Part shown: piece by piece, positions 42,196 to 46,374 of the stretch
Numbering within the stretch: position 1 is the stretch's first letter
Layout of the letters: each line of letters begins with the position of its first letter
Assembly: GCA_963817435.1 (NCBI GenBank)
Contig: CAWFNY010000001.1
Coordinates: 503,831-567,830 of the forward strand
Reading direction: 5' to 3'
Source of the DNA: an uncultured Gemmatimonadales bacterium
GTDB taxonomy: Bacteria > Gemmatimonadota > Gemmatimonadetes > Gemmatimonadales > GWC2-71-9
Length of the DNA stretch: 64,000 nucleotides
Position numbers and translations under genes: made by a program
The notes under the pieces: model-generated
Database searches by the model: none
The model's input: the letters and a program-made list of their open reading frames with translations, nothing else
What the model was told of the DNA's origin: nothing

Positions 42196-42282
42196 CTGGG
42201 GCGGGAGGATGTGATGCCATGGGTTTGCTGCCGATTCGGCCAGCCGGCATCCGTCGTTCCCGCCCTTTGTGTTGCCGCCATC

Positions 42283-42591
42283 TCATGCCGCCGGGTGATT
42301 CGTATCCGCGTTGGGCGGCGTGGTGCCAGTGGTTCCCGTGGTTTCAGGCGCTGGCTCTTCGGCCTTCTTTCGACTCGGCTGGGCCACGTTGCTGGCGCTC
42401 ACCCAGGCCGCGAGCTTCTCGGCGTCGTCGGCGAAGCGGAAGCGGTTGAGTCCGTCCATCACATTCACCACCTGCACCAGCTCCTGCACCACCGACTTGA
42501 GCTGCGCCGTGGCGCCGACATGGTCCCGGCGTCCGGCCGCCGCCTGCGCGGTGGCCTCGTCGAGCTGCAGGAGGGCCTGTTGCTGGACCTG
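42283..42591 (-). pseudogene. 3' fragment of a GC3-rich (host-like) gene of unknown function, 5' end cut off at the composition junction
   Basis: The reading frame is open from an in-frame TAG at 42592-42594. Translation ...LKSVVQELVQVVNVMDGLNRFRFADDAEKLAAW..., with no convincing start. It could still be a short real ORF from GTG 42492. Confidence 0.3.
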
Positions 42592-42594
42592 CTA

Positions 42595-42900
42595 AAGCCC
42601 TCAGGGGAACTCCTGCCCCTGCGGTATTCAGTGGCCGAGTATCTGGCCTACAATGTCACGCGAGTGATTGATGCTCTAGATGAGGATAGTTCTAGCATCG
42701 TCCGATTTCCAACCGGACGCGTGATGTCGATCAGCAAGTACTCATTTGTGCCCGACCTCGTAGGGTCCAGTGCCATATTCAAGATTCCACAGCTACCCAA
42801 AGCGCATGTCTTCGTTACAGACGAGTTTGCCAGGCGAGTGCAAGAAAGTAGACTCTCGGGGTTCACGTTCCTGAAGGTTTGGGATTTCGGACCCGGCTAG
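42595..42900 (+). pseudogene. N-terminally truncated Imm11 (DUF1629)-like polymorphic-toxin immunity gene fragment
   Basis: YLAYNVTRVIDALDEDSS and IFKIPQLPKAHVFVTDEFARRVQESRLSGFTFLKV match my recollection of the Imm11/DUF1629 C-terminal half (YY-LNV---VD-LD-E-S; IFR------LIVSE-FK-A-E-AGLTG--F--V). There is no start codon or N-terminal half. Confidence 0.55.
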
Positions 42901-43161
42901 GGCGTTCCCAAGGCTGCACCGGGAGCAGGAATCGGATGAACCTCATTCCGGAGCGAGACGGGAACGCCGCGCTACGACCTGCTGGCGGTGATCCGAGCGG
43001 AACTTGCAGTACCGGGACACGCGTTTCTCCCTGAACTCTCACAGAACCCATCCCTATAGGTAATGCCAGTTAGTATGGGAGGGCACACCCGGCAGCAGTC
43101 GGCCTGAAACCTCCTGCCAAGCAGCCCGCTTTCCGGAGGGATGGTCAACTCCGTTCGTGAA

Positions 43162-43803
43162 CTATTCCTGCCAGACCACAGGTAGAATAAGGCCGGTTGA
43201 AGCCCGGCGTACCCAAACTTCTGCCCGTTCAAGTAGAAGCGGGGGAACTGAGATAGAGAGTGATGACGCGAAGAGAGAGGCTCGGACAACATTTCTGTTG
43301 TAGATGTCCGCGAGAACGCTGCTATTCGCCGGGTCATCCCGAAACACGTCGATTAGACTGATGAGTTCGGCCTCATTCTGACTTGAAATCGCCCAGACAG
43401 AGATGGGGTATAGCAAGTCGCCGTCAGAAGAATTGGCAGCTTCCACCACGCTTCCGAGCATCGCTAGATCCGCCTGGCAGCGGAGGAGGCGCGGCCAGAC
43501 TCCCTGAATTCGCGCGTGTCGACCAGTGTCGACCCGAAGGATCCGGTCATCATCCATCATTTCCCGACACAGACGTAAGACGAGATCCGGAACGGAGCGG
43601 AGGATGACGGGCTCCGGAGCAGACTCCATTTCGAAATCACTGGGAACGTCGTCCTCGACTAAGTCGATCCCGATGTATCCGACACGTCCTTCGCGCTTCT
43701 CCTGAACCCGCGCTTGGCGCTGGGCGACGGTCAAGACGTAAGGCAATCGCTGCGGCATTGCTGCCCCTGAGTTACGCGCCTTCCCAGCGGGGTGTTTCTT
43801 CAT
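43162..43803 (-). CDS. hypothetical 213-aa protein; candidate immunity protein for the upstream Rhs-CT
   Basis: Lower-GC ORF immediately downstream of the toxin tip on the same strand. Alternative start at 43758 has an AGGGG Shine-Dalgarno sequence. No family recognised. Confidence 0.45.
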   Translation of the reverse strand: MKKHPAGKARNSGAAMPQRLPYVLTVAQRQARVQEKREGRVGYIGIDLVEDDVPSDFEMESAPEPVILRSVPDLVLRLCREMMDDDRILRVDTGRHARIQGVWPRLLRCQADLAMLGSVVEAANSSDGDLLYPISVWAISSQNEAELISLIDVFRDDPANSSVLADIYNRNVVRASLFASSLSISVPPLLLERAEVWVRRASTGLILPVVWQE

Positions 43804-43974
43804 ATCCCGATCGGCGAGAAGATCATGGCCGTGATAATCATGATGAGACCAGTCACGCCAACCTGAGTGGGCGTGGGCGCGGATTGAGGGCTCGCCGGAA
43901 GTGCTGGAATTCGAGGATTCTTCTTCGGAATCTTCGCCAATTGCGGCGGTGGCAGCGAGTGGTGTTGCAGTGCG

Positions 43975-44406: not shown

Positions 44407-44625
44407 ATGGCCAAGACGCGCACCCCGTCCAAAGGGGCACGCAAGGTGCCCAAGACCTATCGCCTGGCTCCCGACAAGGTGGCCGCCGCCCAGCGCGTCC
44501 TCGGCGCGGCGACGGCGACCGAGACGATCGAGCAGGCGCTCGACCTCGTGGTGTTCCGCCAGGCCCTCATCGACGGCACGCGCAGCCTCTTCGGGCTCAC
44601 GATCGACCCGCCGGAGCATGGCTAG
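44407..44625 (+). CDS. vapB: putative VapB-type antitoxin (72 aa)
   Basis: Small ORF with a strong Shine-Dalgarno sequence, overlapping the PIN gene by 8 nt. YRLAPDKVAAAQRVLGAATATETIEQALDLVV resembles DNA-binding antitoxin N-termini. Confidence 0.55.
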   Translation: MAKTRTPSKGARKVPKTYRLAPDKVAAAQRVLGAATATETIEQALDLVVFRQALIDGTRSLFGLTIDPPEHG

Positions 44626-45091
44626 GACGGACGCCGGCGCACGGAAGTACGCGCTGGATACCAACCTGTTCATCCGGGCCTTCCGCGACCCCGTCGCCCA
44701 GGAGGCTTTGGTCCGGTTCCACGCGGCGTTCGCCCCCTTCGAGTACCTGAGCGTCGTCGTGGCACAGGAGCTCCGGGCTGGGACCCGGCGTCCCGCCGAC
44801 CGCGCCCGATTAGAACGGGAGCTGCTGGAGGTGTTCGAGCGCACCGGCCGGGTGGTGACCCCCTCGCGCCAGGCGTGGCACGACTCCGGGGATGTGCTCG
44901 CCGCGCTGGCGGCCAAGGACGGACTGGAGCCGGGTCGGGTCTCCAAGGCGTTCGGGAACGATGTCCTGCTGGGGCTGTCGTGCCGCGAATCCGGGCTCAC
45001 CCTCGTGACGGACAACGTTGCCGACTTTGAGAGGATCAGTCGGATCGTACCGGTGCCCTACGTCGCCCCCTGGCCCGGAGCCTTAGCCTGA
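44618..45091 (+). CDS. vapC: PIN-domain toxin VapC
   Basis: YALDTNLFI (Asp1), VAQELRAG (Glu), NDVLLG (Asp), LVTDNVADFERI (Asp). The four acidic PIN residues occur in the canonical order. Confidence 0.85.
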   Translation: MARTDAGARKYALDTNLFIRAFRDPVAQEALVRFHAAFAPFEYLSVVVAQELRAGTRRPADRARLERELLEVFERTGRVVTPSRQAWHDSGDVLAALAAKDGLEPGRVSKAFGNDVLLGLSCRESGLTLVTDNVADFERISRIVPVPYVAPWPGALA

Positions 45092-45250
45092 CCGCCCACG
45101 GGAGGCCCCATGCGCCTCGGTCTCCGGCGGGAGACGTGGAACCCGCCACGGGCGAGGGGCACTCGGGACGTTGAGCCGTGGTAGGCAGCCGATGGGATCC
45201 TGGGTGAGCAGGATCCGGTCGGTCGCTCCCTCGCGCGCAGCCGCTACAAC
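45083..45250 (-). pseudogene. degenerate Rhs core-end remnant directly downstream of the recombinase
   Basis: Translation ...[19 protein letters not shown]... matches the core end at 44310 only over ~35 nt, with indels, then diverges. No PxxxxDPxGL. Confidence 0.5.
45195..45216. repeat. candidate recombinase core site, copy 2: GGATCCTG-GGTGAG-CAGGATCC
   Basis: Identical to 44285-44306 and in direct orientation. Lies 27 nt after the recombinase stop. Arms extend to 12/14 (CCGATGGGATCCTG / CAGGATCCGGTCGG). Confidence 0.6.
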
Positions 45251-46201
45251 CTATCACTTCGATCCCGCTTCGACAGCCGGTCCGAAGCTTCGGCGGGATG
45301 GGCGCGGGCGTGGACAGCCTGCAGCCGCCGGATCGACACGTGGGTGTAGCGAGCGGTGGTGGTCAAGTTGCGGTGGCCGAGTATCTCCTGCACCTCCCGG
45401 ACGTCCGCGCCACCTTCGAGCAGGAGGGTCGCCGCGGTGTGGCGAAAGAGATGACAGCTCCCTCGGTTGGGAAAGCCCGCTCGGGCTAGGTAGCCACTCA
45501 CCCGTTCCGTCAGCCGGTTCAGCCCGAAGCCGCGTCCTCGAGAGGTCAGAAACAGGAGACCGGGATCCGGCTCGCGGACCAGATGCGGCCGGCCCCGCCG
45601 GAGGTACCGCACCACCCAGCGGACCGCGCGCCGGCCAATCGGTGTCACCCGGTCGCGCTGCCCCTTGCCGGACCGCACCAGGACTACGCCGCGACTGGTG
45701 TCGACATCGCCCACCAACAGGTGAGCGACCTCGGCCCGGCGAAGGCCGGTCGAGTAGAACAGCTCCAGCATCGCCCGGTCTCGGAGACCGATCGATGTCG
45801 AGGGGCGCGCCTGCCGGAGCACGCCCTCTACCTCGCGGGCGCTCAGGACGCTGAGGGGCAGAGTGTAGGGGCGGCGCGGGAGTTCCAGGGTCACACTCGG
45901 ATCGGACCCAAGCAGACCCTGACGGTGGCCCCACCGCAGGAAGCCCTTCACCACGCCAAGGTGCTCCCCCTGGGTGGACCATCGCAGCACCCCCCCACCC
46001 GGGCCCCGGGCATGGAACAGAGAAAGGCGATAGCTCTCGACCAGCTCCGGCCTGACCGCATCCAGCGCGTCCACACCGCCCACCGCCCACCGCGCACCAG
46101 CGGACAAACCGGGCGAGGCCGGTCCGGTGGTTCCGTATCGTCGCGGCCGCGTGATTGGTGGAGGCCAGCCAGAGGAGGAACTGCGCCACGTCTGTAAACA
46201 T
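45244..46201 (-). CDS. XerC/XerD-type tyrosine recombinase/integrase (apparent +1 frameshift near 46074-46094)
   Basis: N-terminal SAM-like segment MFTDVAQFLLWLASTNHAAATIRNHRTGLARFVRW is in one frame. The rest (VDALDAVRPELVESYRL ... GLRRAE ... HLFRHTAAT ... LGH ... ARYTHV), carrying the R, HxxR, H and Y catalytic residues, is in the +1 frame. Confidence 0.8.
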
Positions 46202-46323
46202 GATGGCTCCGGTTTGAGATTCGGAACCATCCACGGTCCACAGGTTTCACATTTTGCGCATCCGCAGATTTCGCAGACTTTCAACACCCTTCCACACCCT
46301 CCACATTGTGCATATCTCCGCGC

Positions 46324-46352
46324 GTTGACCCCGACCGCCGAGGGTCGTAGCA
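46324..46352 (+). promoter_or_regulatory. candidate dnaB promoter
   Basis: TTGACC, 17 nt, TAGCAT, about 25 nt upstream of the dnaB start. Confidence 0.25.
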
Positions 46353-46374
46353 TTCGCTGTCGCACGCCCGTATC

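Follow-up and report, generated by a model that had tools for sequence, protein, structure and literature searches.

A probable inactive member of a family of recombinase-linked Rhs toxin-tip cassette arrays in Gemmatimonadota

The rAID-1 loci have a 5′ XerD-like recombinase gene, a repeated motif that starts just 3′ of its stop codon and cassettes of lower G+C downstream, a structure that suggests active gene acquisition (bioRxiv 10.1101/471110; PMC12247911). According to two reports on rhs loci, orphan tip–immunity pairs with part of the core still attached are frequent there (PMC3150448, PMC3967940). We analyzed a segment between udg and dnaB in a 64,000-nucleotide stretch of a Gemmatimonadota genome (the window). 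Judged by sequence comparison, it is probably a small, inactive member of a Gemmatimonadota family of cassette arrays, and we put at about 0.7 the probability that this family is a so far undescribed site-specific platform for Rhs tip–immunity cassettes, similar to integrons or rAID. The elements listed by an initial annotation are all present, several of them under another identity:

42137–46277, minus strand: whole insert (~4.1 kb), from the udg stop codon to the conserved region upstream of dnaB
42283–42591, minus strand: C-terminal ~100 codons of a ~230-aa array-associated family with homologues in other arrays, function not assigned
42577–42900, plus strand: C-terminal ~60% of an Imm11 gene, 5′ part missing (Imm11 9e-12, profile positions 106–192 of 194)
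43162–43803, minus strand: 213-aa gene, immunity candidate, its start overlapping the true stop of the tip by 4 nt
43800–44000, minus strand: C-terminal portion of the toxin tip, read in a different frame (residues 125–192 of the homologue P0280 align in frame −3, 44000–43803)
43996–44306, minus strand: orphan Rhs core-end and N-terminal part of the same toxin tip (TIGR03696, Rhs_assc_core, 33.1 bits, cut-off 32.5)
44285–44306, minus strand: site 2, an exact direct repeat of site 1; the orphan core-end begins with its codons (ILLTQDP)
44407–44625, plus strand: vapB antitoxin candidate, 72 aa (VapB_antitoxin 17.3 bits, under the cut-off of 23.4)
44618–45091, plus strand: vapC, PIN-domain toxin, 157 aa (PIN 30.2 bits, cut-off 23.6; 7.5e-7)
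45195–45216, minus strand: site 1, 27 nt past the recombinase stop codon
45244–46201, minus strand: Xer-like tyrosine recombinase, 316 aa after repair (Phage_integrase 3e-36)
46080–46093, within the minus-strand recombinase gene: 7-nt tandem duplication (CCACCGC twice on the plus strand), from alignment with homologues

Comparison with relatives indicates that the segment is an insertion. Among 80 metagenomic loci with DnaB 69–90% identical, 75 have the order coaBC-udg-dnaB-radA, in which udg directly adjoins dnaB (gap −82 to +527 nt), and the recombinase, vapC, the 213-aa gene and the gene fragment at 42283–42591 are missing from all 75; the interval is therefore not conserved, a point on which the initial annotation had made its reading depend. 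In alignments, udg homology with relatives stops at 42126–42130 and homology of the dnaB leader with the closest relative (L027) begins at 46278. Family and protein searches gave no housekeeping homologue for any insert ORF. The segment had been called compositionally distinct over ~4 kb, which applies to ~42400–44400, where G+C falls to 53–61%, but not to vapBC and the recombinase, which are at the genome's ~70%. As noted before, the Rhs-derived remnants lie in an unrelated high-GC host, here a member of Gemmatimonadota, and the window lacks a full-length rhs: nine Gemmatimonadota Rhs proteins of full length, used as tblastn queries, matched only the core-end (44301–44206).

The recombinase identification stands, and the catalytic residues R..K..HxxR..H..Y are legible, but the reading frame is broken: the duplication, not present in four homologous genes, shifts it by +1 beyond about residue 38. 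By sequence the protein is Xer-like (2e-41 to E. coli XerD, PDB 1a0p) yet under every Xer cut-off, scoring 320 bits against 371 for its best NCBIfam match, XerC PRK01287, and 205 and 201 against 335 and 330 for the XerC and XerD equivalogs; with the integron integrase it reaches 89.5 bits (cut-off 265). Its homologues (53–78% identity, ten lineages) adjoin the same kind of cassette array in every neighborhood read, and array-linked homologues reach 82% identity. Both results argue against a chromosome-dimer-resolution XerC/D, which had been named as a possible refutation.

The 22-mer GGATCCTGGGTGAGCAGGATCC occurs at 44285–44306 and 45195–45216 within a common stretch of 28 nt, far beyond chance (0 expected in 100 shuffles, 3 mismatches allowed). 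On the minus strand it reads GGATCCTG-CTCACC-CAGGATCC, with perfect inverted 8-bp arms around an asymmetric 6-bp spacer, and it encodes ILLTQDP, the start of the last conserved Rhs block, the aspartyl-protease core-end. What had been taken for a degenerate Rhs core remnant at the first site is the site plus two codons (ILLTQDPIG), followed by unrelated sequence; at site 2, the in-frame ORF upstream is only 2 codons long. The family-wide form is GGATCCTG-CT(C/G)ACC-CAGGATCC. In GTDB representative genomes, the exact 22-mer has 16 positions in nine stretches, eight of them Gemmatimonadota metagenome-assembled genomes, where each copy begins an orphan tip, and about 50 further orphan cassettes in Gemmatimonadota loci begin with the site or a close variant. 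When nine recombinase homologues (53–78% identity) were retrieved by protein and not by site, eight had an exact or near-exact site 1–36 nt past the stop codon. This placement is seen in L002, L003, L008, L012, L013, L015, L017, L023–26 and L107, and a site just past the stop is found in at least nine lineages with recombinases 53–78% identical. In L001 the site is divergent and upstream of the recombinase, and in L109/L110, whose recombinase is 53% identical, orphan tips lie on both sides of it with looser, nonpalindromic left arms.

Within the cassette system, the 22-bp site acts as the unit. Across 35 orphan cassettes, column identity stays at background (0.3–0.5) as far as the last base ahead of the site, then is 0.8–1.0 from its first base. 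Third-codon conservation, measured on 21 orphan cassettes whose loci were not chosen by site, is 0.95 inside the site vs. 0.63 over the next 29 codons. One L002 site is doubly changed (GGATCTTG...CAAGATCC), its arms staying complementary. Spacers CTCACC and CTGACC coexist in the L023 array, so exchange between those two sites would be hindered. Six of the ~55 orphans retain 1–9 additional native Rhs codons (RFL, SFL, YDPGQGSFL), and thus not all cassettes are cut at the site.

Full-length Rhs proteins differ from the orphans in the left arm. We searched 1.84 billion representative proteins with an HMM. Among the 55 top matches that have real Rhs sequence (NRWYDPxTG-type) ahead of the motif and 60 residues or more before it, 54 read RFLTQDP and one KFL; of the 18 whose motif lies at residue 300 or beyond, 17 read RFL. 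ILL appeared only with unrelated upstream sequence. An rhs core lies within 10 kb of the recombinase in one lineage out of ten: in L015/L016, a 2021-aa Rhs-like gene is divergent from the recombinase. This L015 protein, the sole full-length Rhs next to a recombinase, reads GGCGCTTCCTGACCCAGGATCC, its left arm matching 4/8 positions; the native site (4277, minus) and the recombinase-proximal site (10965, plus) point in opposite directions, and three further ILL tips follow downstream in direct orientation.

Two cassettes with sites in direct orientation make up the window array: vapBC, and the tip with the 213-aa gene. The Rhs core-end with toxin tip had been recognized correctly, but the tip is frameshifted. 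Its N-terminal part is 71% identical to residues 17–126 of P0280 (frame −2), a single continuous 192-aa protein against which a 1-nt frameshift is seen near 43996–44000; the C-terminal part, which ends in a hydrophobic membrane helix, is what had been listed as a separate 46-aa small ORF. In a profile search the tip matched no Pfam toxin family. The 213-aa gene belongs to no Pfam or NCBIfam family and, in a set of 5.8 billion proteins, has just three relatives (stand-alone, 190–212 aa, 57% identical); it is likely the cognate immunity gene of the tip. The vapBC pair, on the strand opposite to the array as described before, lies between the two sites, its genes overlapping by 8 nt. Matches of vapC to VapC NCBIfam models are weak, and homologues 40–43% identical occur within arrays L001, L107 and L009, with vapB homologues adjoining vapC in L001 and L107; a palindrome upstream of vapB, at 44358–44387, may be the operator. 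The Imm11 fragment had been correctly recognized as such and as inverted relative to the array, and it is 46% identical to a full Imm11 behind an AHH tip in L015. The neighboring fragment (42283–42591) had been taken for a truncated host-like gene, which we reject: it has no match in the 80 udg-dnaB loci, and its homologues are inside arrays, 40–41% identical in L004 (1936–2187, directly ahead of a site) and in a 230-aa gene of L109/L110. Both fragments are probably from older cassettes, and their head-to-head arrangement suggests a deletion scar. This copy of the array looks decayed; no more than vapBC and the candidate immunity gene can still be functional in the window. Since nearby radA likewise carries a 1-nt indel, some of the frameshifts may be assembly errors and not decay.

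Elsewhere the arrays hold up to seven site-headed cassettes with complete toxin tips, not just remnants. With few exceptions, the tips form intact ORFs of 170–210 codons with a conserved protease motif. Their families are Phage_lysozyme (twice), Ntox10, Tox-REase-7, Tox-REase-9, AHH and Peptidase_M15_4, and the ORFs behind them, several of known immunity families, include LprI (twice, behind lysozyme tips), Imm27, Imm44, Imm11 and DUF4304. The distance from tip stop to the next start is −29 to +21 nt in 26 other cassettes. Between L001 and L004, pN is 0.28 against a pS of 0.75 for the lysozyme tips, and 0.39 against 0.71 for LprI. An identical recombinase protein (P0018) is followed by four different first cassettes in four JGI samples, one of them interrupted by an IS; their DNA is 100% identical over 300 nt upstream and the site, 80–93% over the next 40 nt and then unrelated. 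The same divergence right after the site separates L017 from L019, which share P0022.

The evidence for recombination is comparative throughout, and from it we infer the activity of the enzyme and its biological role, be it defense or toxin switching. It appears fairly probable that the adjacent recombinase is the acting enzyme, binding both 8-bp arms and swapping strands in the 6-bp spacer, with cassettes captured, excised, re-inserted and inverted. An array consists of the recombinase gene, almost at once a site and then cassettes each headed by a site. Because the site lies within the ILLTQDP codons, a typical cassette comprises core-end, C-terminal toxin tip and a tightly linked immunity gene; TA modules, vapBC among them, also occur as cassettes. 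If an array site recombined with the native, half-matching sequence of a full-length rhs, GG(C/G)CGCTTC-CTSACC-CAGGATCC (GRFLTQDP), the rhs 3′ part, tip and immunity gene, would end up behind the array's own left arm, and this would explain ILL in orphans vs. RFL in full-length proteins. Reaction between two array sites would excise, re-insert or invert cassettes. As the 22–28 nt of perfect identity are the longest stretch usable by RecA, homologous exchange could concentrate there too.

As to the role, we give roughly even odds to arrays that store toxin–immunity modules, their immunity genes transcribed along with the recombinase as in rAID, and where an rhs core adjoins, as in L015, the same reaction could place a stored tip onto it. 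Somewhat less probable is an island that serves defense alone, as a genuine functional counterpart of rAID, in which only expressed orphan immunity genes bring benefit and the tips are untranslated passengers. The recombinase would harvest tip and immunity gene together from foreign rhs only because, of the sequences next to an immunity gene, the core-end alone is conserved. Nine of ten lineages have no core within reach, post-recombinase cassettes are mostly co-oriented with the recombinase, the first site at 1–36 nt past its stop makes read-through transcription plausible, tips lack an upstream ORF or obvious start codon, the architecture equals that of rAID-1, and in the window the tip is frameshifted with the 213-aa gene intact. 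Near-universal intactness of the tips, their conserved protease motif and pN well under pS are, however, odd for passengers unless capture was recent or selection earlier, and the L015 geometry suits tip exchange with the core.

That the arrays serve mainly offense, as an Rhs shufflon in which inversion or deletion joins tips from silent stores to an expressed core and so changes the toxin delivered, we regard as rather unlikely. Inversion of core plus recombinase in L015/L016 would swap the two flanking tips, the left-arm rule would be expected from reciprocal exchange, sites of either orientation occur in L001 and L004, and the tips are intact and constrained. But a nearby core exists in one lineage only, the native left arm fits just 4/8 positions, L016 has the same arrangement as L015 and no other was found, and the window has direct sites and no core. 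A small integrative island, with the recombinase as integrase, the 28-bp repeats as att sites and the Rhs and Imm pieces as debris, is improbable: the segment is an insertion and the integrase-like gene adjoins direct repeats 910 bp apart that bracket a TA module, but the repeats lie inside the segment with the recombinase outside them, its ends show no repeat or att-like sequence, and about 50 cassettes of other genomes, as many as seven in one array, begin with the same site. Ordinary orphan rhs fragments, of the kind that homologous recombination and displacement generate in E. coli, Salmonella and Serratia, lying by chance beside a housekeeping XerC/D, are least probable of all: such orphan pairs are indeed common and XerC/XerD are the best family matches, but dozens of cassettes are truncated at the same nucleotide with a non-native palindromic left arm, most arrays are not beside an rhs, and the recombinase, below the Xer equivalog cut-offs, is absent from the interval in 75 relatives and array-linked in ten lineages.

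Our preferred reading remains the site-specific cassette platform. The initial annotation had likened the locus to rAID, a reading that these results support, and the architecture of the Gemmatimonadota arrays matches the published definition of rAID-1, the likeness being one of layout.

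Roughly 4.1 kb of DNA between udg and dnaB (42137 to ~46277) is foreign to a conserved neighborhood. We scanned metagenome contigs with DnaB and recovered 80 loci at 69–96% identity, in 75 of which Udg was detectable upstream of dnaB, the gene order being coaBC-udg-dnaB-radA. In these 75 loci, udg and dnaB overlap or are separated by at most 527 nt, and the recombinase of the window is missing from all of them, as are its vapC, 213-aa gene, and gene fragment. The homology of the relatives ends at the udg stop codon (42126–42130) and restarts at 46278 in the dnaB leader. The initial annotation had described the array and suggested comparing this interval across related genomes; the array is confirmed, and the interval turns out not to be conserved. 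G+C content falls from ~70% to 53–61% at about 42400–44400, the vapBC and recombinase genes being at background composition. The left edge of the insert, directly past the udg stop codon, holds ~10 G-rich heptamers (GGGAAGA/GGGGAAG; 42129–42201), and the same spacer in relatives contains different simple repeats, such as GACGCAGAG in locus L028. Upstream of dnaB, several DnaA-box-like TCCACA and GTGGA(T/A) motifs (46230–46310) may mark a regulatory or origin-related region; they are kept in kind in the udg–dnaB spacers of L028–L033 (GTGGATAAC, GTGGATTTGTGGA).

Features of the window array and its flanks (window positions, strand)
41228–42136, +: udg, left flank of the insert
42591–42283, -: C-terminal fragment of a ~230-aa family, abutting the Imm11 fragment
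42577–42900, +: Imm11 C-terminal fragment (Imm11 family match)
43803–43162, -: 213-aa gene, its start overlapping the true stop codon of the tip
From site 2, -: orphan Rhs core-end, then toxin tip (TIGR03696, 33.1 bits against 32.5)
44306–44285, -: site 2, same sequence as site 1, opening the orphan Rhs core-end
44407–44625, +: vapB (VapB_antitoxin, 17.3 bits, below 23.4)
44618–45091, +: vapC (PIN, 30.2 bits against 23.6)
45216–45195, -: site 1, GGATCCTGCTCACCCAGGATCC, 27 nt 3' of the stop codon in the recombinase gene
46201–45244, -: recombinase (Pfam Phage_integrase, 3e-36)
46375–47805, +: dnaB, right flank of the insert

The two 22-bp sites lie in direct orientation and bracket vapBC. The vapB and vapC genes overlap by 8 nt and, with a PIN-domain toxin behind a small antitoxin gene, have the layout of VapBC type II toxin–antitoxin (TA) systems, among which gene order and domain would place them. 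The palindrome CGTGTATGTACACTATAGTGCGCATGTACG immediately upstream of vapB (44358–44387) is probably the VapB operator/promoter. The core-end behind site 2 retains both DPxGL protease motifs and, with its tip and the 213-aa gene, forms a putative Rhs orphan toxin–immunity cassette; the 213-aa protein has just three relatives among 5.8 billion proteins. As two frames are needed to align the tip to its 192-aa homologue P0280, the frame changing at about 43996–44000, the 46-aa small ORF of the initial annotation is the hydrophobic C-terminal end of the tip: the ORF is there, not as a separate gene. A 380-codon tip reading through in frame into the 213-aa gene was rejected, because P0280 puts the true C terminus in another frame.

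The recombinase gene is also split over two frames by a 7-nt insertion relative to four homologous genes, a tandem duplication at 46080–46093, its remaining 289 codons being open. Two gene fragments meet head-to-head at about 42577–42591 in what looks like a deletion scar. Judged from the sequence, the scar and the frameshifts in the recombinase and the tip point to a decaying array. The radA gene 2 kb away (48000 onwards, +) is likewise split over two frames, by an indel at 48555–48570 that adds one base in comparison with three relatives (CTGCTCGAAGGGCGC vs. CTGCT-GGAAGGCGC), and is either a pseudogene or the product of an assembly indel. Single-base indels may therefore be assembly errors, an explanation less likely for the 7-nt tandem duplication. 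The window copy is small, probably broken, and of limited interest as a functional unit, but it is a clean example of insertion.

The linked recombinase probably (about 0.7) uses the 22-bp site as its substrate, with site-specific exchange building and rearranging the arrays. The site encodes ILLTQDP and had no match in shuffled sequence with three mismatches permitted. The exact 22-mer recurs in two loci fetched solely for their recombinase homologues (L001, 78% identity; L003, 71%), and a scan of one genome per species (GTDB representatives) found it on nine stretches at 16 positions. Eight of the nine are Gemmatimonadota or Gemmatimonadales MAGs; in the ninth (L005, Verrucomicrobiota), it falls within a long repeat-rich (TPR-like) ORF of unrelated sequence and was considered a chance match. 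Recombinase homologues down to 53% identity led to further arrays. In all arrays found, an orphan Rhs core-end opens with the 22 nt of the site. The in-frame ORF upstream of the site spans 2–40 codons, with a single exception of about 100 codons (L001), and a core-end protein stretch follows 3', then 140–170 variable residues. In the window and in L002, L003, L008, L012, L013, L015, L017, L023–26, and L107, a site lies 1–36 nt past the recombinase stop codon in the same orientation, and in L006 a truncated recombinase homologue is ~120 nt from a same-strand site.

The arrays have different neighbors, namely dnaB in the window, a type II secretion system (T2SS)-like operon in six lineages, and aldehyde dehydrogenase, inositol-phosphate synthase, or MatE genes elsewhere, and related arrays contain up to seven co-directional cassettes, as in L009. 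A search for the site in IMG/VR, aimed at phage carriage, gave no match, and no full-length rhs gene with the exact site was present among the 16 GTDB-representative sites, the window, and the array loci. Many short-read contigs with the recombinase aboard (L018–L022, L026, and L108) end a few bases past the site, evidently a branching point of the assembly graph in numerous samples. A contig labeled Phycisphaerales (L111, 2208–6565) has a 54%-identical recombinase behind a large DnaG-like primase gene, an orphan tip of a different core-end family ~270 nt past the recombinase, and a Tox-REase-7 Rhs end at the opposite contig end; the principle may extend to other core-end families, other phyla, and a mobile element.

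Several observations favor a recombination site over a coding remnant. Among 35 orphans, column identity stays at background to the last base before the site and rises to 0.8–1.0 from its first base. Third codon positions, computed from 21 orphans in loci not chosen via the site, are conserved at 0.95 within it vs. 0.63 in the next 29 codons. The two 8-bp arms are perfectly complementary around a 6-bp asymmetric spacer, a layout of arms and spacer typical of the core sites of Xer, Cre, and Flp-type recombinases, and in the L002 variant both arms are altered with complementarity kept. The left arm is foreign to Rhs. We searched 1.84 billion representative proteins with a profile HMM of the core-end. 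In 55 top matches, genuine NRWYDPxTG-type Rhs sequence precedes a motif located 60 or more residues into the protein; 54 of these read RFLTQDP and one KFL. Where the motif lies at residue 300 or beyond, RFL is read in 17 of 18. ILL is confined to proteins whose preceding sequence is unrelated to Rhs, and a protein search with the 43-aa core-end consensus returned short fragments only. The full-length rhs gene beside the recombinase in L015 has GGCGCTTCCTGACCCAGGATCC, with the spacer and right arm intact and the left arm matching at 4 of 8 positions.

The sequences following the site also differ between close copies. Four samples share the identical recombinase P0018, the 300 nt upstream, and the site; past it, they retain 80–93% identity over the next 40 nt and none beyond, and thus have four different first cassettes. 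The recombinase P0022 shows a like divergence past the site (L017 vs. L019). Window site 1 and one site of L007 give way to unrelated sequence within 0–6 nt, so the site also exists without a tip.

The diversity of Rhs and other polymorphic toxins is generally attributed to homologous recombination with orphan cassettes. Exchange of the RecA type would likewise be concentrated by 22–28 nt of perfect identity, which is the main caveat to site-specific exchange; about 1 in 10 orphans keeps a few extra native codons. A palindrome arising by chance from codon usage is contradicted by the third-position conservation and by the nonpalindromic left arm of the full-length RFL form.

For exchange at the site by the linked recombinase, L015 gives a prediction. 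We sought rhs cores by tblastn in the window and the array loci and found one only in L015/L016, a 2,021-aa protein with a Sec-type signal peptide and no PAAR. In L015, the rhs and recombinase genes are divergent, and the native rhs sequence is inverted relative to the recombinase-proximal site with a tip behind each; three further ILL tips lie downstream of rhs in direct orientation. Exchange between the two would give the core another tip, the core keeping RFL and the array ILL, as is observed throughout. Capture would run through the same kind of native half-matching sequence, taking in the 3' part of an rhs gene. No inverted isomer of L015 was found.

Full-length Gemmatimonadota Rhs-like proteins (L015 3726–9791, P0256, and P0257) are 1,900–2,100 aa long with N-terminal Sec-type signal peptides, and no PAAR or VgrG-related part was detected in them; Pfam RHS_repeat matches these divergent proteins at best below threshold, the core-end alone being recognizable. 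In most other lineages, the recombinase and its array adjoin an operon of T2SS/type IV pilus type (T2SSE, F, G, pseudopilins, secretin) that comes with a sigma-54 activator (L003 1094–9824; L008 2674–7841; L012; L017 1–5882; L107 1–9749; L109 3046–4530; L015 13218–15613). It could be an export route for the Sec-signal Rhs proteins of Gemmatimonadota.

Among 32 tips examined for family membership, we identified Phage_lysozyme (2), Ntox10, Tox-REase-7, Tox-REase-9, AHH, and Peptidase_M15_4/VanY domains. The ORFs behind the tips include LprI (2, behind the lysozyme tips), Imm27, Imm44, Imm11, DUF4304, and DUF4431, and start between -29 and +21 nt relative to the tip stop codon. In the lysozyme/LprI cassette common to L001 and L004, the tip has a pN of 0.28 against a pS of 0.75, and the immunity gene 0.39 against 0.71; both thus evolved, at some stage, under protein-level constraint. 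Homologues of vapBC (40–50% identity) lie within arrays L001, L107, and L009, and the family of the 42283–42591 fragment reappears in L004 and L109/L110. Insertion sequences (IS3, IS110, Transposase_mut) have entered L024 (1431–2548, inside the core-end of the first cassette), L007 (6484–7595), L013 (12441–13691), and L107 (12830–13738).

What the arrays are for is less certain than how they may be assembled. That they store immunity genes co-transcribed with the recombinase, in the manner of rAID, is close to an even proposition, perhaps slightly less. A store of tips for toxin switching appears rather unlikely, and the arrays may serve as both. We are similarly doubtful, while finding it worth stating, that Gemmatimonadota own a dedicated site-specific recombination system for polymorphic toxins, one in which a Xer-derived recombinase would combine, at the 22-bp site within the core-end codons, integron-like capture of tip–immunity pairs from any rhs gene of the family with shufflon-like tip swapping, by inversion or deletion, onto a Sec-exported Rhs core, possibly T2SS-delivered. 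If the mechanism holds, it would constitute a third kind of cassette platform beside integrons and shufflons, give a search rule for other phyla (palindromes of non-native sequence where orphan tips have their fixed 5' end), and make a compact recombinase/site pair available for swapping domains in frame.

The identity of the recombinase bears on the comparison with known systems. Its best NCBIfam match is XerC PRK01287 (320 bits, cut-off 371); it scores 205 vs. 335 for XerC TIGR02224 and 201 vs. 330 for XerD TIGR02225, and its closest solved structure is Escherichia coli XerD (2e-41). The initial annotation had named grouping with the chromosome-dimer-resolution XerC/D, together with a dif site elsewhere, as an argument against its reading; all Xer scores are below the cut-offs. 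A housekeeping Xer is further contradicted by the absence of the gene from syntenic loci and its constant linkage to an array: its genomic context varies among lineages, the array being present every time. In L001, sites that alternate in orientation delimit the modules, TA modules among them, an arrangement like that of the pdif modules of Acinetobacter plasmids. The site is nevertheless unlike the 11-6-11 layout of dif with its AT-rich center, and the recombinase is a dedicated paralogue rather than the host XerC/D.

Sedentary chromosomal integrons, with their TA cassettes, are alike in having a recombinase beside a primary site, then promoter-less one-site cassettes, and a first cassette that differs among close strains. 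The recombinase is not IntI, however: the integron integrase models scored 89.5 bits against a cut-off of 265 (TIGR02249) and 57 against 435 (PRK15417), with only the C-terminal motif (residues 236–294) aligning. The 8-6-8 inverted repeat sits 5' in the cassette and is part of an ORF, whereas attC is a 60- to 140-nt imperfect hairpin at the 3' end, and we found no conserved element where the cassettes end 3'. The recombinase gene is oriented toward the array and not away from it, and the cassettes belong to one functional class. With neither IntI nor attC, the locus was rejected as an integron. Shufflons (Rci/sfx, IncI plasmids) and programmed inversions share a tyrosine recombinase, short in-gene sites at the border of constant and variable parts, one conserved and one variable site arm, and inverted sites (here in L015, L001, and L004). 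In contrast, most arrays have no constant gene part nearby, many have all sites direct, and the cassettes bring an extra (immunity) gene. Both window sites are direct with no Rhs core, the inverted sites of L001 and L004 also occur without a core, and the full shufflon arrangement appears only in L015; inversion isomers were not seen.

Classical orphan rhs/cdiA-CT cassettes (Poole et al. 2011, PMC3150448; Koskiniemi et al. 2014, PMC3967940) also consist of a C-terminal core-end, tip, and immunity gene without the delivery part and can be reactivated by recombination with the full-length gene. They lie downstream of the main gene with variable core length and use RecA-type homology, whereas the present orphans have a fixed truncation point, a non-Rhs left arm, and a linked dedicated recombinase. 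Polyimmunity loci beside XerC/D (Zhang et al. 2012, PMC3482391) similarly place an Xer-family recombinase next to conflict-system genes, but are defined as never interrupted by toxin cassettes, of which the present arrays are made. The published work searched covers XerC/D beside polyimmunity loci, rAID, and dif sites within the T6SS clusters of Neisseria; none of it describes a recombination site embedded in the Rhs core-end, an absence that is no proof of novelty.

The locus belongs among recombinase-associated conflict-gene arrays; by analogy, its architecture and likely logic are closest to rAID-1 and chromosomal integrons, with the in-ORF site recalling shufflons. The initial reading of the segment as a possible rAID analogue is accordingly supported and sharpened. 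In rAID-1 of Bacteroidales (Ross et al. 2019), as here, a XerD-like tyrosine recombinase stands at the 5' end, a repeated motif starts immediately 3' of the stop codon of this gene and is found again between genes, and short lower-GC genes akin to polymorphic-toxin immunity form strain-variable arrays located on acquired DNA. The published criteria (bioRxiv 10.1101/471110) are a 5' XerD-like recombinase >44% identical to Bacteroides fragilis BF9343_RS08045, two or more co-directional downstream genes, and a cassette G+C of 41% or lower, the orphan immunity genes protecting against incoming effectors. In the window, the motif occurs past the recombinase stop and again ahead of the tip; the frameshifted tip and the 213-aa gene are on the recombinase strand, with vapBC and the Imm11 fragment opposite. 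Family membership places immunity genes in the window (the Imm11 fragment) and elsewhere (LprI, Imm27, Imm44, and Imm11). The window cassettes are at 53–61% G+C against the 41%, only the relative drop being similar, and phylum distance probably puts the recombinase below the identity threshold. With the literal G+C value exceeded, we do not claim rAID-1 membership.

The arrays differ from rAID-1 in their host (Gemmatimonadota, from soil and sediment metagenomes) and in a G+C drop that is relative (55–65% vs. 70%). They carry complete Rhs core-ends, toxin tips, and TA modules beyond immunity genes, and their repeat is a defined 22-bp inverted repeat within coding sequence. How rAID clusters arise and acquire their genes is described as an open question (PMC12247911), for which this family of loci offers a concrete, testable mechanism consisting of a short defined site in the sole sequence common to a toxin-gene family and an adjacent dedicated recombinase. 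By analogy, the present arrays suggest one route for rAID biogenesis and, if the mechanism is correct, an att site hidden in the conserved end of a toxin gene would explain rAID-type arrays in other phyla.
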